64,000 nucleotides of DNA from Escherichia coli (GTDB taxonomy: Bacteria > Pseudomonadota > Gammaproteobacteria > Enterobacterales > Enterobacteriaceae), in the NCBI RefSeq assembly GCF_051903065.1, contig NZ_CP178438.1. The stretch is one strand, 5' to 3'. Positions within the stretch are counted from its first letter, which is position 1; each line of letters starts with the position of its first letter. The notes below the pieces were generated by a model. That model did no database searches and was not told where the DNA came from. It saw nothing but the letters and a program-made list of their open reading frames with translations. A program made the position numbers and the translations under genes. Positions 22,528 to 52,580 of this stretch are shown here, piece after piece.

Positions 22528-23584
22528 GGCTTTGTTGAATAAATCAGATTTCGGGTAAGTCTCCCCCGTAGCGGGTTGTGTTTTCAGGCAATACGCACGC
22601 TTTCAGGCATACCTGCTTTCGTCATTTTGTTCAGCGCTCGTACCAGGGCCATAGCCTCTGCAACCTGACCATCGTAGTCACGCAGTGTCAGTGAACCCCC
22701 GAACAGCTGTTTTACCCGGTACATCGCCGTTTCCGCTATCGAGCGACGGTTGTAATCTGTTGTCCATTTCCACCGCGCATTACTCCCGGTCATTCGCTGA
22801 TTAGCCACTGCACGGTTACGGTCTGCATATTCACCGGGCCAGTAACCCGCACCTTTTCGGGGAGGGATAAGCGCGCTGATTTTCTTACGCCGCAGTTCAT
22901 CGTGACATAGCCGGGTATCGTAAGCGCCATCGGCGGCGGCTGACCTGATTTTCCGGTGGGTTTGCCGGATTAACCCGGGGAAGGCCTCTGAGTCCGTAAC
23001 GTTGTTCAGCGACAGGTCAGCGCAGATGATTTCATGTGTTTTACTGTCAACGGCGAGATGCAGCTTACGCCAGATACGGCGGCGTTCCTGGCCATGCTTT
23101 TTGACTTTCCACTCGCCTTCACCGAAGACCTTCAGCCCGGTGGAATCAATTACCAGGTGTGCGATTTCACCCCGGGTGGGCGTTTTGAAACTGACATTAA
23201 CCGACTTTGCCCGCCTGCTGACACAGCTGTAATCCGGGCAGCGTAGCGGAACGTTCATCAGAGAAAAAATGGAATCAATAAAGCCCTGCGCAGCGCGCAG
23301 GGTCAGCCTGAATACGCGTTTAATGACCAGCACAGTCGTGATGGCAAGGTCAGAATAGCGCTGAGGTCTGCCTCGTGAAGAAGGTGTTGCTGACTCATAC
23401 CAGGCCTGAATAGCTTCATCATCCAGCCAGAAAGTTATGGAGCCACGGTTGATGAGGGCTTTATTGTAGGTGGGCCAGTTGGTGATTTTGAACTTTTGCT
23501 TTGCCACGGAACGGTCTGCGTTGTCGGGAAGATACGTGATCTGATCCTTCAACTCAGCAAAAGTTCGATTTATTCAACAAAGCC
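22528..23584 (-). mobile_element. IS903-group (IS5 family) insertion sequence, complete, 1057 bp
   Basis: Terminal 18-bp inverted repeats GGCTTTGTTGAATAAATC at both ends; single transposase ORF; 9-bp direct duplication of the target; length and IR match my recollection of IS903/IS102. Confidence 0.85.
22584..23507 (-). CDS. IS903-type DDE transposase
   Basis: 307 aa from a GTG start (VAKQKFKITNW...); the track's 322-aa version starts at an upstream TTG; exact start uncertain. Confidence 0.8.
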   Translation of the reverse strand: MAKQKFKITNWPTYNKALINRGSITFWLDDEAIQAWYESATPSSRGRPQRYSDLAITTVLVIKRVFRLTLRAAQGFIDSIFSLMNVPLRCPDYSCVSRRAKSVNVSFKTPTRGEIAHLVIDSTGLKVFGEGEWKVKKHGQERRRIWRKLHLAVDSKTHEIICADLSLNNVTDSEAFPGLIRQTHRKIRSAAADGAYDTRLCHDELRRKKISALIPPRKGAGYWPGEYADRNRAVANQRMTGSNARWKWTTDYNRRSIAETAMYRVKQLFGGSLTLRDYDGQVAEAMALVRALNKMTKAGMPESVRIA

Positions 23585-27816: not shown

Positions 27817-29877
27817 TCACTTCTTCATCTGCGACAAAATCGTCCGACACTGATTAGCCTCCCCTTCGGAAGGTGAGATCAGCGCCAGTAACGCCGCCGC
27901 CGGTGTTACCAGCGTTGCCAGTGCCGCAGCAACAGCACCACGGGCAATCAACGGTCCGGCTTTCACTCCAGCCTGCGGATTTTTAAACGTCCCACGCACA
28001 TACAGCGGAGAACGCAGTGTGATAATCCGAATCCCTTTACTCTCCGGATCAATAGTCAAATCCAGCTGTTCCGAAGCAAAACTTGCCGTGCCGGTAACGT
28101 TAATCAACGCGTTCTCAGTATCGAAAGCAAAAATCTGCGGGCGTGCCACGCCGTTGGCAATATTCAGATTCGCCGCCGCGCAGTTCACCCGCACCTCATC
28201 GTCACCAAATATCGCACCGACAATGTAGTTGCCGACATTCAGCCCAACAATCTCCATCAGGTTGCGGCTCACCAGCCCGTCATTCATCAACAGTTTCAGG
28301 TTGCCGTTACTGTTGCCTAAAAGCGCCGCCACCGAGTTACCGCTACCGCGTAGTTCCGCGTCACCGTTCATTTCCCCCAGCGTCTTCTGCATCAGTTCCA
28401 CATCGGGCATCAGTTCTTTCAGTTTCAGTCGACGAGCCTGAATATCTGCCCGCCCCTGCATCGGCTTTTTATCGCCTTCCAGATGAATATTCGCCGCAAT
28501 GCTGCCGCCCGCCATGCCAAATTTCAGCGGTTGCAGGCGCAGGTCAGCATTTTTGAGGATGATATGAGTAGAAAGATCGCTAATCGGCAGGCTACTGCCA
28601 TGCTCAATGCGCCGCCCTTTGAAGCGAACATCGGCATCCATGACATCCCATTTATCGGTTTCGAAGCGGTCATAAGGCAGCACTTTGCCCGCAGGCTGAA
28701 CGCTTTTTTCGCCCTTCTTCTGTTCAGACCGTTTCGACTTTTCAGCCCCTTTCCCGGAGTCAACGCCAATCAACGGTCCCAGGTCCGCCAGCCGCAATTG
28801 CCGCGACTCAACATCACCTTCCAGTTTTGGTCGTGGCTTGCCGGTGGTGTAGATCAGAGAACCGTGGATATCGCTATCGCCAATGCGCCCATTAAAATCG
28901 CGATAATCAAAGACCGACGATTTTTCAGTGTCGATTTTCGCTACCAGCCGACCATCTGTTTCAAACGGCGGGGTATCGGGCAGCAGAACGCCCGTCAGTT
29001 CATAGAGATCACCCAGTGAATCGCCAGAAAATTTAAGCCGTAAATCGACACCGCCCATCTTCATTGGGTCATTCACGACGCCATCAAAAGCAACACGGGT
29101 ATTACCTGAACGGAAATCAGCCTGTACCGGAAACGGCGTCCCTTCGCCACGCAGCGCCAGCATACCGCCAATTTTCCCCTTACCCGTGAGCGGTTCACCG
29201 TTATAACGTCCCTGCGCCTTCAGGCCAAAAACGTAATCGCCCACCTTTTCTTTATCCGCTTTACCTTTCGATCCAGTAAATTCGCTGAACGGCAGCGGCT
29301 TGCCTAACGGATCGACAAAAATTTCCAGATCCGCTTTGCTTACTTTGTCATCAATGGCGATCCGCCCTTGATCGAACAGAATATTATCCAGCCGAAACGA
29401 CCACGCCAACGGCTTTGCATTCGCGTTTTTGTTGTCATCGTTGGCAAGATTAAACGTCCAGTTATTGTTCTTTTCAGAGAGGCGAATCAGGCGCGCGTCG
29501 GGCTTTTCGAGCTTGATCCACGGCAGCCAGACCGTTTTGGTCAGCAGCGCCAGCGGGGCCAGCGTTGCCTCTACGCGTGGCAAATGCACCATCGTGACTT
29601 CGGGAATATCCGGTGGATTGCCAAGAATGATGTCTTCCGCGTGTACATGGGGCCACGGCACCCAGCTGCGCCAGCCAGTTTCTTGTTTTTGCCGCTCCCA
29701 CACCACGCCCAGATCGCCACGGATAGCGAACGGACGATTCAACTCCGCAGAGACTTTCTGGTTGATGGTCGGTTTGAGTCGATTCCAGTCAAAAGTTGCA
29801 ATCAAAATGATCGCCACGACAATCAACAACAAGAAAGCCCCTGAAATCGCAGCGGTTATTTTGCCTGCCTTGCTCAT
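27817..29877 (-). CDS. yhjG: AsmA-family outer-membrane biogenesis protein YhjG
   Basis: About 686 aa from MSKAGKITAAISGAFLLLIVVAIILI (N-terminal anchor); ORF extends 5 codons further upstream. Confidence 0.85.
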   Translation of the reverse strand: MSKAGKITAAISGAFLLLIVVAIILIATFDWNRLKPTINQKVSAELNRPFAIRGDLGVVWERQKQETGWRSWVPWPHVHAEDIILGNPPDIPEVTMVHLPRVEATLAPLALLTKTVWLPWIKLEKPDARLIRLSEKNNNWTFNLANDDNKNANAKPLAWSFRLDNILFDQGRIAIDDKVSKADLEIFVDPLGKPLPFSEFTGSKGKADKEKVGDYVFGLKAQGRYNGEPLTGKGKIGGMLALRGEGTPFPVQADFRSGNTRVAFDGVVNDPMKMGGVDLRLKFSGDSLGDLYELTGVLLPDTPPFETDGRLVAKIDTEKSSVFDYRDFNGRIGDSDIHGSLIYTTGKPRPKLEGDVESRQLRLADLGPLIGVDSGKGAEKSKRSEQKKGEKSVQPAGKVLPYDRFETDKWDVMDADVRFKGRRIEHGSSLPISDLSTHIILKNADLRLQPLKFGMAGGSIAANIHLEGDKKPMQGRADIQARRLKLKELMPDVELMQKTLGEMNGDAELRGSGNSVAALLGNSNGNLKLLMNDGLVSRNLMEIVGLNVGNYIVGAIFGDDEVRVNCAAANLNIANGVARPQIFAFDTENALINVTGTASFASEQLDLTIDPESKGIRIITLRSPLYVRGTFKNPQAGVKAGPLIARGAVAAALATLVTPAAALLALISPSEGEANQCRTILSQMKK

Positions 29878-29946
29878 CGTTCGCTTCCTCATATTCTTCC
29901 TGTGCCAGTCCTAAAGATAGTCCAGCCAGGCGGAAAATGAGGCAGC

Positions 29947-30714
29947 TTATAGCGCCAGAACCGCCGTATTCAGCGTTTCTATCGGTGCCGGGCGTGAAAG
30001 AAACCAGCCTTGTGCGGCGAATGCGGGCGAGTTCTGAACATCACGCCACTCTTCCGGCGTTTCTACGCCCTCAACAATCACCCCGCGACAATAGCGATTC
30101 ATTAGATGTAAAAGCTGAGAAAAGAGTGTGCGGCCTTCCGGCGACTGACGCAGCATCACAAACAGTTCTCGCGCGATTTTGATGTAGTCATAACGCACTT
30201 CACTTAGTGCAGAGAAATTTGCCATCCCGGTACCAAAATCATCCAGCCACAGCGGGCCAAATTCACATATCGAGGCAAAGGTTGAATCTTTCGGCAGGCG
30301 GATGTGTTCCACCAGTTCGAAACGCAGCCAGGGAAGATCCTCAATCTGGCGCAGGATTTTTGGTTGCTGACGCAGGGCGATGAGCGTAGGGCCATCAATA
30401 TTGACCGATGCCAGCAGGCCGTGCTCTACAAAGAAGTCGGCTTTTTGCGCCAGCAAATCAATCTGCTCTTTCACAACCTCCATCCGATGGCTAACGGTGA
30501 TTTCAGTAAAATAGCGATCCGGCGGCAGGCGTTGCGAAGGGTTCAAGGGATGCGTGACCACCGTTAATAGCTCCACGGCCATTAACCGTCCGCATGTTTG
30601 ATAGATCGGCTGCCAGGTGTAAGCACGCTCACACTGCAACCAAAAACGCCGTTCCTGCAAGCTCTCGATGCTTGCTTCAGGGTTGCTTATTCGCTGGATA
30701 ACCTGCCTTATCAT
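29947..30714 (-). CDS. pdeH: c-di-GMP phosphodiesterase PdeH (EAL domain)
   Basis: 255 aa from MIRQVIQRISNPEASIESLQERRFW; EAL-domain features (AVELLTVV, DDFGTG). Confidence 0.9.
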   Translation of the reverse strand: MIRQVIQRISNPEASIESLQERRFWLQCERAYTWQPIYQTCGRLMAVELLTVVTHPLNPSQRLPPDRYFTEITVSHRMEVVKEQIDLLAQKADFFVEHGLLASVNIDGPTLIALRQQPKILRQIEDLPWLRFELVEHIRLPKDSTFASICEFGPLWLDDFGTGMANFSALSEVRYDYIKIARELFVMLRQSPEGRTLFSQLLHLMNRYCRGVIVEGVETPEEWRDVQNSPAFAAQGWFLSRPAPIETLNTAVLAL

Positions 30715-30762
30715 CAAAGATGTCCTGTGTTTAAAAGTGATGCTGCCCGGACTCAACAAAGA

Positions 30763-30789
30763 TTATCGGCGCGCAAGGGCAGAACTTTA
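30763..30789 (-). promoter_or_regulatory. Sigma-28 (FliA) class 3 flagellar promoter for pdeH
   Basis: Minus strand reads TAAAGTTC-N11-GCCGATAA, near-perfect to the FliA consensus TAAAGTTT-N11-GCCGATAA, about 50 bp upstream of pdeH. Confidence 0.65.
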
Positions 30790-30858
30790 CCGCCTGGCCG
30801 GGGTAAATTTCCCCTCTCCACAACGGAATCTTTCAGGAATACGTTCTGGCTCAAAAAA

Positions 30859-30880
30859 ATAATGGAACACTGTTTTAATA
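30859..30880. promoter_or_regulatory. Putative KdgR operator upstream of kdgK
   Basis: AATGGAACACTGTTTTAAT is an imperfect palindrome resembling KdgR half-sites (AATGAAACA / TGTTTCATT). Confidence 0.35.
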
Positions 30881-30945
30881 TGGTTGACCAGCAAACCACC
30901 ACAGCGCAAACTAACGCTAATTTTTTACAGATCAGGTTCACGACT

Positions 30946-31875
30946 ATGTCCAAAAAGATTGCCGTGATTGGCGAATGCATGATTGAGCTTTCCGAGAAAG
31001 GCGCGGACGTTAAGCGCGGTTTCGGCGGCGATACACTGAATACTTCCGTCTATATCGCCCGTCAGGTCGATCCTGCGGCATTAACTGTTCATTACGTAAC
31101 GGCGCTGGGAACGGACAGTTTTAGCCAGCAGATGCTGGACGCCTGGCACGGCGAGAACGTTGATACTTCCCTGACCCAACGGATGGAAAACCGTCTGCCG
31201 GGCCTTTACTACATTGAAACCGACAGCACCGGTGAACGTACGTTCTACTACTGGCGTAACGAAGCCGCTGCCAAATTCTGGCTGGAGAGCGAGCAGTCTG
31301 CGGCGATTTGTGCAGAGCTGGCGAATTTCGATTATCTCTACCTGAGCGGGATTAGCCTGGCGATCTTAAGCCCGACCAGCCGCGAAAAGCTGCTTTCCCT
31401 GCTGCGCGAATGCCGCGCCAACGGCGGAAAAGTGATTTTCGACAATAACTATCGTCCGCGCCTGTGGGCCAGCAAAGAAGAGACACAGCTGGTGTACCAA
31501 CAAATGCTGGAATGCACGGATATCGCCTTCCTGACGCTGGACGATGAAGACGCGCTGTGGGGTCAACAGCCGGTGGAAGACGTCATTGCGCGCACCCATA
31601 ACGCGGGCGTGAAAGAAGTGGTGGTGAAACGCGGGGCGGATTCTTGCCTGGTGTCCATTGCTGGCGAAGGGTTAGTGGATGTTCCGGCGGTGAAACTGCC
31701 GAAAGAAAAAGTGATCGATACCACCGCAGCTGGCGACTCTTTCAGTGCCGGTTATCTGGCGGTACGTTTGACGGGCGGCAGTGCGGAAAACGCAGCGAAA
31801 CGCGGGCACCTGACCGCAAGTACCGTTATTCAGTATCGCGGCGCGATTATCCCGCGTGAGGCGATGCCAGCGTAA
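30946..31875 (+). CDS. kdgK: 2-dehydro-3-deoxygluconokinase
   Basis: 309 aa from MSKKIAVIGECMIEL; PfkB-family sugar kinase; the track's upstream extension to 30598 is rejected. Confidence 0.9.
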   Translation: MSKKIAVIGECMIELSEKGADVKRGFGGDTLNTSVYIARQVDPAALTVHYVTALGTDSFSQQMLDAWHGENVDTSLTQRMENRLPGLYYIETDSTGERTFYYWRNEAAAKFWLESEQSAAICAELANFDYLYLSGISLAILSPTSREKLLSLLRECRANGGKVIFDNNYRPRLWASKEETQLVYQQMLECTDIAFLTLDDEDALWGQQPVEDVIARTHNAGVKEVVVKRGADSCLVSIAGEGLVDVPAVKLPKEKVIDTTAAGDSFSAGYLAVRLTGGSAENAAKRGHLTASTVIQYRGAIIPREAMPA

Positions 31876-31970
31876 ACGCAGCATATGCAAAAGGCTGGAT
31901 AAAGTGTTACCCCTCTATCCAGCTCATCCATAAATACCTGATGGTTGTGCTAACTCATCACCATCAGGCA

Positions 31971-33467
31971 TTACTGTGCAGGTGGAATATCCGTCACTTC
32001 AGGATGTACGTCATCCGTGGCGACAGAGGTGGTCGCAGCGGCGGTAGATGGGGCCATGATTTGATCCCAGGCCGCCTGCAACGCTTTCATGTTAAATTCC
32101 GGCTCGCCTTTCGGCTGCAGCAGTATTAACGCCATATCATTCGACAACTGCTGACGCAGATCCTGATTTAACATCTCCACAGTCAGGCTGTTAAGGAAAT
32201 CCTGCCGCAGTTTCTGATACTGCTCCGGCGCGATATCGACGACCTGATTTTGCAACGAACGCATCCGCTGACCCATCAGAATATCGGTATCAGCTCGTGC
32301 ATAGGCGGCAAACAGTTTCTGCAGCTCCAGTTTCTTTTGCGCCACTAACGCATTGAACTCTTCTTCCGGCAGACCTTTATCGCGAACCTTCGCCAGTTCA
32401 CGCGCCACCAGATTAAGGTTGCTGTTCAGCTTGTCGTTTGGTGATTCGATGTTGATGGCACACTGCGCACGCAGATACAGCACACGGCAGTCAAATCCAA
32501 GACCGATGTCTTTGCTATTACTGGCGCTTAACGCTTGCTGAACATGCCAGAACAGCGCCTCACGGGCCAGGTCCGCACGCCAGTAGCGCAGCAGTGCGGC
32601 TGATTCACGAATCGGCTGCCACGGCGTATCCCACATGATAGATAACCGGTCCTGACGCACCGCGTCAGTCATAATACTCACCGCTTCCGCACGCAGCGGG
32701 GAAAGCGTCGGCACCGGAGCCGGTGTTTCACGTTTGCCTTTCAGTTCGCCAAACGTTTTGTTGATTTGGTCGACGACCGAGCGCGCATCCACGTTTCCCA
32801 CCACCAGCAGCGTCATTGCATCCGGGGTGTACCATTTCTGATAGAAATCTTTAATTTTTTCCGCTTCAACGGGTTGTTTCAGCGGATCGGCAGGATCGTG
32901 ACCTAACAGGGTTGATCCTTTCAGACGATAACGCCACCAGCCCTCTTTAGTATCGGCAGGCCAGGTTGCCACCATGTCCTGACTTTGCAGCGCGTGGTTG
33001 ATGGTTTCTGGCGTGATAGTCAGTTTGCCAGTGGCATTTGCCAGATAAGAGAGCGCCTCTTTCAGCAAATCGTTACGGTTATTGGGCAAACTCAGATTAA
33101 ACAGCGTGGTGTCATAAGAGACAATTACCGGCGGCATCGGGCGTTTAGGGTCGATCCCCTGCTGCCACAATGAACGCGCCTGTGCTGCGTCAAGGCCACC
33201 GCTTTGCGTTAGCGCAATACGAGGGATGGCGTGACTGTAACCGCTCTGTTGTGTACTTTCGGCGAGCGAACCGGTATTAACCAGCAGGCGAATTTCAACA
33301 CGATCGCTGGGACGCTGGGGGGTGGTCAGCACTTGCCACTGTAAACCGTTGGAAAGCGTCCCCTGTTGCCATGCTGGATCAGGCTGGAGCGCATCTGCCT
33401 GCACATAGCCAGCAGTGGCCATCATCAGCAAACCGCCCGCTAAAAGTCGAATTTTTGTGCCCTGCAT
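31971..33467 (-). CDS. yhjJ: M16-family zinc-peptidase-like periplasmic protein YhjJ
   Basis: 498 aa with signal peptide (MQGTKIRLLAGGLLMMATAGYVQA). Confidence 0.9.
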   Translation of the reverse strand: MQGTKIRLLAGGLLMMATAGYVQADALQPDPAWQQGTLSNGLQWQVLTTPQRPSDRVEIRLLVNTGSLAESTQQSGYSHAIPRIALTQSGGLDAAQARSLWQQGIDPKRPMPPVIVSYDTTLFNLSLPNNRNDLLKEALSYLANATGKLTITPETINHALQSQDMVATWPADTKEGWWRYRLKGSTLLGHDPADPLKQPVEAEKIKDFYQKWYTPDAMTLLVVGNVDARSVVDQINKTFGELKGKRETPAPVPTLSPLRAEAVSIMTDAVRQDRLSIMWDTPWQPIRESAALLRYWRADLAREALFWHVQQALSASNSKDIGLGFDCRVLYLRAQCAINIESPNDKLNSNLNLVARELAKVRDKGLPEEEFNALVAQKKLELQKLFAAYARADTDILMGQRMRSLQNQVVDIAPEQYQKLRQDFLNSLTVEMLNQDLRQQLSNDMALILLQPKGEPEFNMKALQAAWDQIMAPSTAAATTSVATDDVHPEVTDIPPAQ

Positions 33468-33687
33468 GTGAACCCCTGATCAACTATCCTGGTAATAAAA
33501 AAACTGCCCGTTGTCGGTCAGTCTAAATGACGTTAAAAACACTTCGTGTTAGACCGCAAGAACATGAAAATGTCACGGAAGAAGTGAAATAAACCTGAAC
33601 TTACCCAGGTGGTAAGTTCAGGCACAGGGGTCAATTATGCGCAAACACCCGCACTCGGGGAAGGGAGTGCGGGCATAAGTGATGAGA

Positions 33688-44144: not shown

Positions 44145-46763
44145 TCATTGTTGAGCCAAAGCCTGATCCGATGGTTGTGCCGTTTCGCTCCGCTCCGGGC
44201 GGCGCGGAATAAACGATACAACCCAGGAAACCAGAGAAGTCAGCACACGGAATATGCCCTTCACCGAAGAAGGCGCAAACTCCGCCAGATGGCGGTAGCC
44301 ACGGAAGCCGAGCTTCAGAATATCCAGCAGACTTTCCAGCGGCTTATCTTCCGGATAGCTGTCCTGCCAGAGCGCCCATGTATCCGCACGGGCAAACGTA
44401 CACTGCACAAAATCGATATGTTGCTGGGTGGTGAGCGGCATTAATTTCAGCCCAACTTCATTACCCATCACGCGCGCCACCTGGGTCGGGAAAACGTATT
44501 CCTGCTGACCGCGTTTAAGCAACAGATTCACTTTCTGCCCTTCCAGAATCTGCGCCTGACCGTTGATCTTGATCCCCAAACCACCATCGGAGAAATCCTG
44601 AACGGTACACGAAAAGAGGTGACCATCTTCGCGGGCAATTGCCGCGGGCATCGTCATCTCCACGCGGTGCGATCGGCGTACCTGTTTGCTTTCTACCGAT
44701 ACCGCAACTGCGCCGCCAAGAACAATCAGGTTGTAGAATACCCACACCATACTGACGACCACGGTGAGCATCTCGGTTGGCGGGCCATAGAAGTAGCGCC
44801 AGATGCCTACCGCAACGCCCACCAGGTTGAGCAGGACAAGGAAGATGTAGGGCCGCGAGATCACCCAATCGACGTACTCTTCTTCCACCAGTCCACCTTT
44901 GGCGGTGACGTTAAATTTGCCTTTGTGCGGGTTAATCAGCGCCACCAGCGTCGGTGGTGCGATATACCACGCCAGCACCGTTTCGTAGATTTCACTCCAG
45001 AAAGAGTGGCGATATTTGCCCTGGATCTTGGAGTTGGTCAGGCTGGCATGGATCATATGCGGCAGCACGAATAGGGCGATCATCAACGCTGGCGCATAGA
45101 TGATGTAGGCATGAAGCAGCAGGAACGCCAGCGGCGCAGTCAGGAAGATCAGCCGTGGAATGCCCGACAAGAAGTGGAACATGGCGTTGACGTAACATAG
45201 CCGCTGAGCAAACTTCAGCCCTTTACCGGTGAGCGGGTTATCGAGACGGAAGATTTGTACCATCCCGCGCGCCCAGCGAATACGCTGACCGATATGCGCC
45301 GACAGACTTTCGGTCGCCAGCCCCGCCGCCTGCGGAATACGCATATACGCGGAGGTATAGCCACGACGGTGCAAACGCAGAGAAGTATGCGCATCTTCAG
45401 TCACGGTTTCGACAGCAATGCCGCCAATTTCATCCAGCGGCTTACGACGAATCACCGCACAGGAACCGCAGAAGAAAGTGGCGTCCCACATATCGTTGCC
45501 ATCCTGCACCAGACCATAGAACAGCGTGCCTTCGTTCGGCGTTTTACGAAAACGCCCCAGGTTGCGTTCAAACGGGTCCGGCGAGAAGAAGTGGTGTGGA
45601 GTCTGCATCATCGCCAGCTGTTTCTCTTTCAGGAACCAGCCCATGGTCATTTGCAGGAACGATCGCGTTGGTACGTGATCGCAGTCGAAAATCGACACGA
45701 ACTCGCCTTTGGCATATTTCAGCGCATTGTTGATGTTGCCCGCTTTCGCATGTTCATGAGTGGTACGGGCGATATATTTCACCCCCACGTTTTGCGCAAA
45801 CTGGCGAAACTCTTCCCTGCCGCCGTCATCGAGGATCCAGATGTTCAGCTTGTCTTTCGGCCAGTCGATACCCAGCGAGGCGTAAATGGTATTTTTCACC
45901 ACGTTGAGATCTTCGTTGTAAGTCGGGACAAAGATATCCACCGACGGCCACAGCGACATATCTTTCGGCAATGGCACCGGCTGACGATTCAGCGGCCATA
46001 CTACCTGGAAGTAGCCGAGCACCAGCACAATCCACGCGTACGTTTCAGCGAAGAGCAGAATAAGCCCGCACACCAGGCTGACCGGATCGTCCCAGTTCAG
46101 CGTAGAGGTGTAACGCCACCAGATATAACGGCAAGAAACGGTCAGCGACAGCACAATCAACATTAGCGCCGAGAAGCGCCCCGGCATCCGCCGTACGATC
46201 AGCGCTACCCCCCACAGCAGCATCAGGAAGATAAACTGCGCCAGCGGGTTAAACGGCTGAGTAACGCAGATTAACGCCAGAATCAGCGAGAAGGTGACGA
46301 TGATACCGAGGATCAACCGCCGCGCCCCGGCACTCAAATGACCGAGCTCTTTTTTCTCATCAAGATGCTGTGTTTTATGGCTAACGCGCTCAGGCAGCTC
46401 GTTCATCCATTGATGGTAACGTCCACGAATATTCTGCAGACCTGAAAATGCCCGCCTGCGCGGTTTCGGCGTTTCTTTGCGCGATGCACCGATCAGTAAC
46501 CAGCATGTTTGAATGAGATAACGGACCGGGTCCAGCGGACGCGGACGCGAGGCGTTGATATGCGGATACAGGTTTTTATGTTCTGCGCGAATACGCTGCC
46601 AGCGCGGGTGCTCCAGCGGAATAAAAATCCAGGCCAGGATCATCCAGAAACAGCCGAGCGTCGCGCTGAAAGCCGACGCACCGTGACGACGATAATCGCG
46701 ATAACGCCCGATAAGCCGCGCGTTGACCGGCGGGATAAGCAACCACCGGGTCAGGATACTCAT
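44145..46763 (-). CDS. bcsA: Cellulose synthase catalytic subunit BcsA (GT2 plus PilZ)
   Basis: 872 aa from MSILTRWLLIPPVNARLIGRY; GT2 motifs (DDG, DCD, QRIRWA) and a C-terminal PilZ region. Confidence 0.9.
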   Translation of the reverse strand: MSILTRWLLIPPVNARLIGRYRDYRRHGASAFSATLGCFWMILAWIFIPLEHPRWQRIRAEHKNLYPHINASRPRPLDPVRYLIQTCWLLIGASRKETPKPRRRAFSGLQNIRGRYHQWMNELPERVSHKTQHLDEKKELGHLSAGARRLILGIIVTFSLILALICVTQPFNPLAQFIFLMLLWGVALIVRRMPGRFSALMLIVLSLTVSCRYIWWRYTSTLNWDDPVSLVCGLILLFAETYAWIVLVLGYFQVVWPLNRQPVPLPKDMSLWPSVDIFVPTYNEDLNVVKNTIYASLGIDWPKDKLNIWILDDGGREEFRQFAQNVGVKYIARTTHEHAKAGNINNALKYAKGEFVSIFDCDHVPTRSFLQMTMGWFLKEKQLAMMQTPHHFFSPDPFERNLGRFRKTPNEGTLFYGLVQDGNDMWDATFFCGSCAVIRRKPLDEIGGIAVETVTEDAHTSLRLHRRGYTSAYMRIPQAAGLATESLSAHIGQRIRWARGMVQIFRLDNPLTGKGLKFAQRLCYVNAMFHFLSGIPRLIFLTAPLAFLLLHAYIIYAPALMIALFVLPHMIHASLTNSKIQGKYRHSFWSEIYETVLAWYIAPPTLVALINPHKGKFNVTAKGGLVEEEYVDWVISRPYIFLVLLNLVGVAVGIWRYFYGPPTEMLTVVVSMVWVFYNLIVLGGAVAVSVESKQVRRSHRVEMTMPAAIAREDGHLFSCTVQDFSDGGLGIKINGQAQILEGQKVNLLLKRGQQEYVFPTQVARVMGNEVGLKLMPLTTQQHIDFVQCTFARADTWALWQDSYPEDKPLESLLDILKLGFRGYRHLAEFAPSSVKGIFRVLTSLVSWVVSFIPRRPERSETAQPSDQALAQQ

Positions 46764-47512
46764 GATGCACTCCCGACTGGCGTTTTCAGCCCGGAATAGT
46801 TCAACAGGCACCAGTTCGCCAGCGTCAATATCTCTTCAGCCGCCAGCGCATCACTGCGATATTCACCTACTGGTTGCTTAGCCGCCAGGCATTCAGCCAT
46901 CGCTTCATCACGATGAATGAGCATCGGCAGTAATCGGCGCTGGCTTTGCAACCAAAGCTGGTAAATATCGTCCTGAACCTGACTGCCAATACGGAAGTCA
47001 TTAATCAAAATATGTGCGCCATCCGGCAGCGCTTGCTGATGCAGTCGGATATGGCAGTTGGCATCCACATTGACGATTGCCAGCGAGTGATCGCACAAAC
47101 TCAGCAGCTGGTGGGTTATCTGCGAGGCATCACGCGGTAAGTCGATTAAAATCCACTGGTAACGCCCGCTGGCTTTTAGTTGCTGTAAGCCGGAGCAAAT
47201 ATCGCTCAGCCGGGTTTGCCAGTGCTGTGGATTTTCTTGTTCTTCAATGGATAACTGACCAAAAGGCAGCAAATCGAGCTGCGAGGTGTAGCGCAACCCA
47301 GCGTCGCGCCAGTCCTGGCCATCCAGCATAGCTCTGGCCCAGCCCTGACGGTGGGTAAAATCAACATTAAATGACAGGCGCAACAAGTTGTCCGGGCAGG
47401 CATCGACCACCAGGACATTTTCTCCCAACATTTGTAATGACCAGGCTAATGCGGCGGTGATGGTTGTTGTCCCCACGCCTCCCCGCACCCCCTGCAATCC
47501 CAGTACGGCCAT
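46760..47512 (-). CDS. bcsQ: Cellulose biosynthesis ParA/MinD-like ATPase BcsQ (intact)
   Basis: 250 aa uninterrupted; P-loop GVRGGVGTTT; codon 7 is Gln. Confidence 0.9.
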   Translation of the reverse strand: MAVLGLQGVRGGVGTTTITAALAWSLQMLGENVLVVDACPDNLLRLSFNVDFTHRQGWARAMLDGQDWRDAGLRYTSQLDLLPFGQLSIEEQENPQHWQTRLSDICSGLQQLKASGRYQWILIDLPRDASQITHQLLSLCDHSLAIVNVDANCHIRLHQQALPDGAHILINDFRIGSQVQDDIYQLWLQSQRRLLPMLIHRDEAMAECLAAKQPVGEYRSDALAAEEILTLANWCLLNYSGLKTPVGSAS

Positions 47513-51506: not shown

Positions 51507-51614
51507 TTACTTCCGTTTGTTCAGCCAGTTCACGATCATACTGGCAAGAATGCCAGCAATGACCGGAGCCGCTAAATCATGCCAGAAGGCCATGCCCAGC
51601 TCTGCGAGCGTCAT
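51507..51614 (-). CDS. ldrD: Ldr-family type I toxin peptide, copy 1 (35 aa)
   Basis: MTLAELGMAFWHDLAAPVIAGILASMIVNWLNKRK; one hydrophobic helix with a basic C-terminus, as I recall for the E. coli Ldr toxin family. Confidence 0.8.
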   Translation of the reverse strand: MTLAELGMAFWHDLAAPVIAGILASMIVNWLNKRK

Positions 51615-51662
51615 ATAGCCGCCTGTGTTGTAATGACAACGTTTCGCGGCTATTCTTGTATT

Positions 51663-51728
51663 GTTTGGATGCAAGAATGGCCCCCGTGATGTTGTCAGGT
51701 GCATACCTGCAACGTGCGGGGGTTTTCT
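51663..51728 (+). ncRNA. rdlD: Rdl antisense RNA, copy 1 (approximate)
   Basis: Opposite strand about 50 nt upstream of the ldr ATG; sigma70-like promoter TTGTAA-17-TATTCT at 51628-51656; ends in hairpin CCCCCG...CGGGGG plus TTTT at 51723-51726. Boundaries inferred. Confidence 0.5.
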
Positions 51729-51908
51729 CTCTCCAGCAACCAATACCACCAGGGATTAAGCCCCCGCAACATTGCGCCTCACCGGAACCCTTCCGGCTTG
51801 CCGCTGATTCTACGACTGTTTTTCTGTTCCGGAATCCGTCACGTCTTCACTCTGTGCTGCGCATTCCGCAGAATATTATCCGCTTGCAACCGTTGCATTT
51901 TTCTTACG

Positions 51909-51939
51909 AAAAAGGCCGCAGAGTTTCACCCCTGCGGCC
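51909..51939 (-). terminator. Rho-independent terminator of ldr copy 2
   Basis: Same hairpin plus T-run as copy 1. Confidence 0.6.
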
Positions 51940-51989
51940 TGGTCCGGGCGCAAATTGCCATTACGGCAGCCTGACGCCCGCATGACACG

Positions 51990-52097
51990 TTACTTCCGCT
52001 TGTTCAGCCAGTTCACGATCATACTGGCAAGAATGTCATCAATGACCGGAGACGCTAAATCATGCCAGAAGGCCATGCCCAGCTCTGCGAGCGTCAT
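51990..52097 (-). CDS. Ldr-family toxin peptide, copy 2 (variant, 35 aa)
   Basis: MTLAELGMAFWHDLASPVIDDILASMIVNWLNKRK; differs from copies 1 and 3 at three residues (A to S, A to D, G to D) from four clustered nucleotide changes. Confidence 0.75.
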   Translation of the reverse strand: MTLAELGMAFWHDLASPVIDDILASMIVNWLNKRK

Positions 52098-52145
52098 ATA
52101 GCCGCCTGTGTTGTAATGACAACGTTTCGCGGCTATTCTTGTATT

Positions 52146-52211
52146 GTTTGGATGCAAGAATGGCCCCCGTGATGTTGTCAGGTGCATACCTGCAACGTGC
52201 GGGGGTTTTCT
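52146..52211 (+). ncRNA. Rdl antisense RNA, copy 2 (approximate)
   Basis: Same promoter and terminator-like hairpin as copy 1, shifted by one repeat unit. Confidence 0.45.
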
Positions 52212-52391
52212 CTCTCCAGCAACCAATGCCACCAGGGATTAAGCCCCCGCAACATTGCGCCTCACCGGAATCCTTCCGGCTTGACGCTGATTCTACGACT
52301 GTTTTTCTGTTCCGGAATCCGTCACGTCTTCACTCTGTGCTGCGCATTCCGCAGAATATTATCCGCTTGCAACCGTTGCATTTTTCTTACG

Positions 52392-52422
52392 AAAAAGGCC
52401 GCAGAGTTTCACCCCTGCGGCC
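52392..52422 (-). terminator. Rho-independent terminator of ldr copy 3
   Basis: Same hairpin plus T-run. Confidence 0.6.
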
Positions 52423-52472
52423 TGGTCCGGGCGCAAATTGCCATTACGGCAGCCTGACGCCCGCATGACACG

Positions 52473-52580
52473 TTACTTCCGCTTGTTCAGCCAGTTCACG
52501 ATCATACTGGCAAGAATACCAGCAATGACCGGAGCCGCTAAATCATGCCAGAAGGCCATGCCCAGCTCTGCGAGCGTCAT
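52473..52580 (-). CDS. Ldr-family toxin peptide, copy 3 (35 aa)
   Basis: Peptide identical to copy 1; the 5'-UTR region differs from copies 1 and 2. Confidence 0.8.
   Translation of the reverse strand: MTLAELGMAFWHDLAAPVIAGILASMIVNWLNKRK

Follow-up and report, generated by a model that had tools for sequence, protein, structure and literature searches.

Results

The pdeH-kdgK locus

The stretch of DNA analysed here (the window) covers 64 kb of Escherichia coli sequence, and all coordinates are positions within it. The coding sequence of pdeH (yhjH) occupies positions 29947-30714 on the minus strand and encodes an EAL-domain c-di-GMP phosphodiesterase of 255 amino acids. The coding sequence of kdgK occupies positions 30946-31875 on the plus strand and encodes 2-dehydro-3-deoxygluconokinase, with 309 amino acids. 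Because pdeH ends at 30714 and kdgK starts at 30946 in the open reading frame listing, the spacer between the two genes is exactly 30715-30945, or 231 bp, which is the interval that the initial annotation had marked out. Comparison with NCBIfam equivalog models gave 460 bits for PdeH against NF008617 (cut-off 190) and 524 bits for KdgK against NF052444 (cut-off 400).

The region 30500-31200 had a match in 5422 of 5426 complete E. coli genomes, and the pdeH-kdgK spacer itself was found at an identity of at least 95% in 5416 of the 5426. The spacer is chromosomal and part of the E. coli core genome. One genome, E. coli ECNB21-M121, was 100% identical to the window over 30500-31200. Its RefSeq annotation agrees on both genes (pdeH as a cyclic-guanylate-specific phosphodiesterase, kdgK as 2-dehydro-3-deoxygluconokinase) and gives the gene order yhjG-pdeH / kdgK / yhjJ-dctA-hmsP(pdeK)-bcs. 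The genes fliA, flgM and kdgR lie beyond the 64-kb window, and their presence in the strain was assumed from its species identity.

Orthologous loci were collected by a search with PdeH in one genome per species. This search yielded 80 loci, ranging from Escherichia to Franconibacter, and the addition of ECNB21-M121 brought the set to 81. In 78 of the 81 loci kdgK is located divergently upstream of pdeH. A total of 77 spacers were extracted, 75 of them between 227 and 243 bp long, and conservation was scored in 74 distinct spacers as the identity of each base to that of the window. The resulting pattern is a classical phylogenetic footprint, in which two compact modules are separated by drifting DNA. 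The scores for the individual elements are given below with the elements concerned.

The sigma-28 promoter of pdeH

A sigma-28 motif, TAAAGTTCTGCCCTTGCGCGCCGATAA, was found at 30763-30789 on the minus strand. The -35 element TAAAGTTC at 30782-30789 agrees with the consensus TAAAGTTT at 7 of 8 positions (conservation 0.99), and the -10 element GCCGATAA at 30763-30770 is a perfect consensus match (conservation 1.00). The 11-nt spacer between them, at 30771-30781, is fixed in length and variable in sequence (conservation 0.47). As a whole the motif has one mismatch to TAAAGTTT-N11-GCCGATAA, that is, 15 of the 16 consensus positions at the 11-nt spacing, and it was the sole match with at most one mismatch in the 64 kb. 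On the pdeH strand, 48 nt separate the 3' end of the -10 element from the pdeH ATG. The promoter TAAAGTTC-N11-GCCGATAA that the initial annotation had read on the minus strand "about 50 bp" upstream of pdeH was therefore recovered in both its sequence and its position.

The same motif was present in all 77 orthologous spacers, each time with exactly one mismatch. The sequences TAAAGTT[C/A] and GCCGATAA and the 11-nt length of the spacer between them were constant throughout this enterobacterial set, and the distance from the motif to the pdeH ATG was 47-57 nt in 76 of the 77. In Citrobacter amalonaticus S646 the intergenic spacer measures 421 bp and the motif is found 235 nt from the pdeH ATG as opposed to about 50 nt, so about 190 bp have been inserted in the pdeH leader of this species.

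The K-12 yhjH promoter was reportedly placed in class 3 of the FliA regulon by Ko & Park in 2000. The K-12 yhjH site coincides with a FliA ChIP-seq peak that, with a FAT score of 67, is among the strongest of that genome, and yhjH expression was 511 in motile MG1655 and 2 in a fliA deletion (Fitzgerald et al. 2014, PMC4183435). By microarray, yhjH dropped 9.6-fold upon deletion of fliA and rose 1.9-fold 5 minutes after sigma-F induction (PMC1935009). Together with the invariance of the elements in 77 of 77 spacers, these K-12 data support the earlier assignment of pdeH to the flagellar class 3 regulon. That the motif in the window is a chance match devoid of promoter function is extremely improbable. 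Sigma-28-like motifs do occur at chance level under a lax threshold of at most three mismatches (0.67 expected, with matches in 48 of 100 dinucleotide-preserving shuffles), but the actual match has a single mismatch and none of the 100 shuffles contained one that good. Both elements are unchanged across the orthologous spacers while the sequence between them drifts, and FliA occupancy and FliA dependence are published for the K-12 ortholog (PMC4183435, PMC1935009).

The predicted pdeH 5' untranslated region spans 30715-30756 on the minus strand, about 40 nt, and was derived from the spacing between the sigma-28 -10 element and the start site. This spacing is usually 7-9 nt, and the pdeH start site would accordingly fall at approximately 30753-30757 on the minus strand. 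The Shine-Dalgarno sequence AGGA was read at 30723-30726 on the minus strand, 8 nt before the ATG, in a conserved block at 30719-30728 that makes up the pdeH ribosome-binding region (conservation 0.92). A regulatory hairpin in the pdeH leader was considered and rejected, as the 65 orthologous leaders that were folded gave weak and inconsistent structures.

In the mechanism that we propose, RNA polymerase carrying sigma-28 (FliA) would read the -35 element and the -10 element over the 11-nt spacer, and the pdeH mRNA would begin near 30755 with a leader of about 40 nt that carries the AGGA ribosome-binding site. Transcribed from a class 3 sigma-28 promoter, PdeH would therefore be produced together with flagellin, motor and chemotaxis proteins. 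By lowering c-di-GMP, PdeH would keep the YcgR motor brake off, and the low level of c-di-GMP would restrain c-di-GMP-dependent matrix production, for example by the Bcs cellulose synthase encoded nearby. Work by Pesavento in 2008 and by Boehm and Paul in 2010 is said to have shown that PdeH keeps c-di-GMP low, with no YcgR motor braking and with matrix synthesis delayed. Both yhjH and ycgR have been described as modulators of the c-di-GMP control of motility (PMC4183435).

A CRP site was also considered for the spacer and rejected, since TGTGA-N6-TCACA at up to two mismatches had no match there and the count over the whole window was below that expected by chance. Inside the pdeH coding sequence, at 30618-30633, the CRP-like sequence TGTAAGCACGCTCACA has one mismatch to TGTGA-N6-TCACA. 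It is probably a chance occurrence, because the window contains fewer such matches than its shuffles do.

The KdgR-like box and the proposed promoter of kdgK

On the kdgK side of the spacer, 66 nt ahead of the kdgK ATG, the sequence AATGGAACACTGTTTTAAT forms a KdgR-like imperfect palindrome, AATGGAAC-ACT-GTTTTAAT, at 30861-30879 (conservation 0.85) and is a putative kdgK operator. The reference for this comparison was the D. dadantii KdgR consensus AAATGAAACAnTGTTTCATTT (Rodionov et al. 2000, 2004, as cited in PMC5559549), of which AATGAAACAnTGTTTCATT is the core. The box has three mismatches to this core (3 of 18 in the 19-mer); no other site in the window matches at this level, and 2 of 100 shuffles contained a match. 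Against the 21-mer AAATGAAACAnTGTTTCATTT we counted 5 mismatches in 20 positions, and the two halves of the box are symmetrical at only 5 of 8 positions. A degenerate gamma-proteobacterial consensus, RWWGAAACGNCGTTTCAKKA, is quoted in PMC8222616, and the box is not within three mismatches of it, so the word "imperfect" that had been applied to the palindrome was accurate. The box is best described as a real but weak match to the consensus, as judged from its bases.

Nearly all of the 77 spacers have the core GGAAC-N3-GTTTTAA at a distance of 64-70 nt from the kdgK ATG. Deletion of kdgR raises kdgK mRNA (PMC6958661), and kdgK mRNA is likewise raised in a strain with 39 genes deleted, kdgR among them (PMC6892915). 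The KdgR reading of the palindrome ahead of kdgK is supported both by its conserved distance from the gene and by the derepression of kdgK without KdgR. The accessible literature yielded no report that KdgR binds the E. coli kdgK box in vitro. From the sequence and these expression data, we infer that the box serves as the operator for kdgK and is physically bound by KdgR.

Just upstream of the box, an A-tract block, CTGGCTCAAAAAAATA, was observed at 30845-30860 on the plus strand. This block is conserved to the same degree as the box (0.86) though it falls outside the 19-mer consensus, and it may bend the DNA, act as an UP-like element or belong to a wider footprint of the repressor. A larger palindrome enclosing the box, GCTGGCTCAA ... 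TTGACCAGC, was rejected, as it is not conserved past TTGACC.

Downstream of the box, TTGACC at 30884-30889 on the plus strand (conservation 0.98) is a candidate sigma-70 -35 element at a fixed spacing from the palindrome, and CAAACT at 30907-30912 (plus strand, conservation 0.85), 17 nt after TTGACC, is a candidate -10 element. The sequence TTGAC[C/T/A] follows GTTTTA[A] by exactly 5 nt in 73 of the 77 spacers, and 71 of these 73 have CA[C/A/G]ACT at the 17-nt distance; the other two have CAAAAT. A generic sigma-70 scan requiring at least 9 of 12 consensus positions reported no promoter in the spacer. It missed this candidate because TTGACC-17-CAAACT, whose -10 element is weak, reaches no more than 8 of 12. 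The combination TTGACC-17-CAAACT, abutted by the KdgR box, is most likely the kdgK promoter, a reading that draws on its bases and their conservation. The kdgK start site would then fall near 30919-30920 on the plus strand. For translation, a Shine-Dalgarno region, CAGG, was read at 30933-30936 on the plus strand, in a conserved block at 30933-30945 that makes up the kdgK ribosome-binding region (conservation 0.88). Neither the pdeH nor the kdgK start site was found in the accessible supplement text of three genome-wide E. coli start-site studies (PMC3415461, PMC4782308 and PMC2760140), and both start sites given here are predicted from the promoter elements.

The geometry of these elements suggests how repression might work. 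The KdgR palindrome ends 4 nt from the presumed -35 hexamer, and KdgR bound there would cover roughly -59 to -41, counted from a start near 30919. In this position KdgR, an IclR-family protein, could block RNA polymerase, or its alpha-subunit or -35 and upstream contacts, at kdgK. Binding of 2-keto-3-deoxygluconate would release KdgR and lift the repression of kdgK.

Two other readings of the conserved kdgK-proximal DNA were weighed. The block 30845-30889 might have been conserved as a core promoter and not as a repressor site, with the likeness to a KdgR box being secondary; the A-tract or UP-like segment would then act with a -10-like TAATAT or TGtTTTAAT at about 30871-30881, and kdgK transcription would start at about 30886. 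In keeping with this, GTTTTAATAT, two bases of which lie past the 19-mer box, shows little or no variation, TTTAAT matches TATAAT at 5 of 6 positions, and the window has a TG two bases upstream. However, the critical A at position 2 is missing from TTTAAT, the T of the upstream TG is a C in 26 of the 75 spacers scored, and the position of a -35 element for a -10 inside the box reads TCAAAA or CAAAAA. The left half-site GGAAC is equally conserved, yet it would have no role in such a promoter. The dependence of kdgK on KdgR is published (PMC6892915, PMC6958661), and TTGACC-17-CAnACT is the better conserved promoter candidate. An extended -10 promoter inside the KdgR box was consequently rejected as having less support than TTGACC-17-CAnACT, and we regard the conservation of the block as a core promoter as unlikely.

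The other reading concerns which repressor the palindrome at 30861-30879 serves. It may mainly or also be an operator for PlaR (YiaJ), an IclR-family paralog, so that kdgK would be co-repressed by PlaR and KdgR and would answer to sugars from plants, galacturonate and ascorbate among them. The PlaR box, as published, is similar to that of KdgR. In PMC6958661, kdgK is among the PlaR targets identified by genomic SELEX, and the authors propose that genes with a KdgR box are co-regulated by both repressors. Against this, the printed PlaR consensus ATnTGAAACnnnGTTCAnTT does not match the kdgK box at up to three mismatches; at that threshold it had no match in the spacer and a single one in the window, at 33466-33485, which is the level expected by chance. 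The accessible part of PMC6958661 states the rise of kdgK in a kdgR mutant and does not name kdgK among the genes raised in a plaR mutant. Control by PlaR would in any case be an addition to control by KdgR and not a replacement for it. Taken as a whole, an operator role for PlaR at this palindrome is a tentative proposal that we hold to be less probable than its absence, and co-regulation of kdgK by PlaR and KdgR is possible. The KdgR operator next to TTGACC-17-CAAACT is the reading adopted below.

Relationship between the two modules

Between the sigma-28 -35 element and the A-tract block lies an inter-module spacer of about 55 nt, at 30790-30844, which is poorly conserved (0.42) and varies in length. 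A palindrome, GGGTAAATTTCCCC, was seen within it at 30801-30814, just upstream of the sigma-28 -35 element, and is specific to E. coli; its left arm also pairs with the sigma-28 -35 element (GAACTTTACC/GGTAAATTTC). This inverted repeat hinted at a second, divergent sigma-28 promoter for kdgK. That candidate was rejected, as the would-be -10 element matches GCCGATAA at only 3 of 8 positions by our own reading and conservation of the repeat does not extend past E. coli.

In one E. coli genome, DSM 111506, a copy of the IS4-like element IS421, more than 1 kb long, is inserted between the modules at a point corresponding to about window position 30800 (1834-2946 of locus L084). The position of the break suggests that both modules were left intact, and this genome constitutes a natural test of their separability. 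Most spacers have 71-77 nt between the sigma-28 -35 element and the GGAAC core, the outliers having 44 and 83 nt, and the distance from the KdgR box to TTGACC was fixed in 73 of 77. The fixed distance from box to TTGACC and the 17-nt spacing to CAnACT place the KdgR box with the kdgK core promoter. With the drift in inter-module distance and the IS421 insertion set beside this fixed spacing, we conclude that the sigma-28 promoter is autonomous. We therefore consider it highly probable that the spacer is made up of two independent modules set back to back, sigma-28/pdeH on the minus strand and KdgR/kdgK on the plus strand.

The alternative is that the modules are coupled, with a repressor on the KdgR box, or transcription from one promoter, modulating the other, so that hexuronate or pectin sensing would reach pdeH and the motility-biofilm switch. 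The divergent gene order retained in nearly all loci and the steady length of the spacer would agree with such coupling. Synteny among close relatives is expected anyway, however, and the inter-module sequence is unconstrained, its length is unphased, and IS421 parts the modules in one genome. In addition, kdgK has 0 occurrences in the FliA regulon paper (PMC4183435). Coupling in this general sense is very improbable. The more specific proposal, that KdgR or PlaR at 30845-30889, or kdgK transcription, modulates the sigma-28 promoter some 75 bp away, and that the pairing is more than mere synteny, seems to us marginally less probable still. Were it true, plant-sugar sensing would feed directly into the motility-biofilm switch.

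Cellulose genes and other features of the window

The initial annotation had also described the bcs and pdeK genes nearby as intact. In the open reading frames of the window, bcsRQABZC, bcsEFG and pdeK (annotated as hmsP) are all uninterrupted and without internal stops, in agreement with that description. The bcsQ gene is a full-length open reading frame of 250 amino acids at 46760-47512 on the minus strand, starting MAVLGLQGVRGG. In K-12 laboratory strains, bcsQ is interrupted near its start by a premature stop. Since bcsQ is full-length here, unlike in those strains, the cellulose operon of this strain is probably functional.

Several further observations were made in passing. An Rfam scan of 29800-32000 at an E-value of up to 1 returned nothing in the pdeH-kdgK spacer. 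In the kdgK-yhjJ spacer, at 31893-31969 on the plus strand, it gave a weak match to naRNA4 (23.5 bits, E 0.21, below the gathering score of 59.5), which is probably a REP-type repeat. Relative to ECNB21-M121, the window has an insertion of about 1057 bp at 22528-23584, between rcdB (yhjC) and yhjB. The insertion carries one open reading frame of 322 amino acids at 22584-23552 on the minus strand, and judged by eye its product looks like an IS5/IS903-type transposase. ECNB21-M121 in turn has IS1397 between yhjD and yhjE, where the window has none. Between yhjV and bcsG, at about 51507-52580, three tandem Ldr-family type I toxin genes are annotated in the matching reference genome. Over 30500-64000 the window and the reference differ at 14 bases, 9 of which are at 51745-52150, within or just upstream of the Ldr repeat region.

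Discussion

The region between pdeH and kdgK combines the published K-12 yhjH class 3 promoter with the control region of the KdgR-regulated kdgK gene, and as such it is already known. The analysis demonstrates that real promoter and operator motifs were recognisable from the raw sequence, which in itself adds no new biology. The conservation-based proposal for a kdgK core promoter and the evidence for independent evolution of the two modules are each a small addition. The region can be regarded as a clean textbook case in which c-di-GMP degradation is tied to late flagellar expression, beside an unrelated sugar-catabolic operator.

The closest known system for the pdeH module is the K-12 yhjH class 3 promoter. 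The two share the locus, both octamers, the 11-nt spacing and the placement relative to the gene. In the window the site reads TAAAGTTCTGCCCTTGCGCGCCGATAAT, which differs from the K-12 yhjH site TAAAGTTCTGCCCTTACGCGCCGATAAT by one base of the spacer, G for A; to judge from the aligned sequences, the difference is a polymorphism between strains, and the position concerned is free to vary among species. For the kdgK module, the comparison is with the KdgR operators of the KDG/pectin regulon. Like them, the kdgK box is an imperfect palindrome rich in A and T, has their length and half-site pattern, and precedes a gene of the KDG regulon that is derepressed when KdgR is absent. It differs from consensus KdgR operators in being a weaker match and in sitting just upstream of the putative -35 element and not over the core promoter. 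The PlaR (YiaJ) box of E. coli K-12 (PMC6958661) is also an IclR-family palindrome of similar composition, but its printed consensus, which misses the kdgK box at up to three mismatches, sets it apart.
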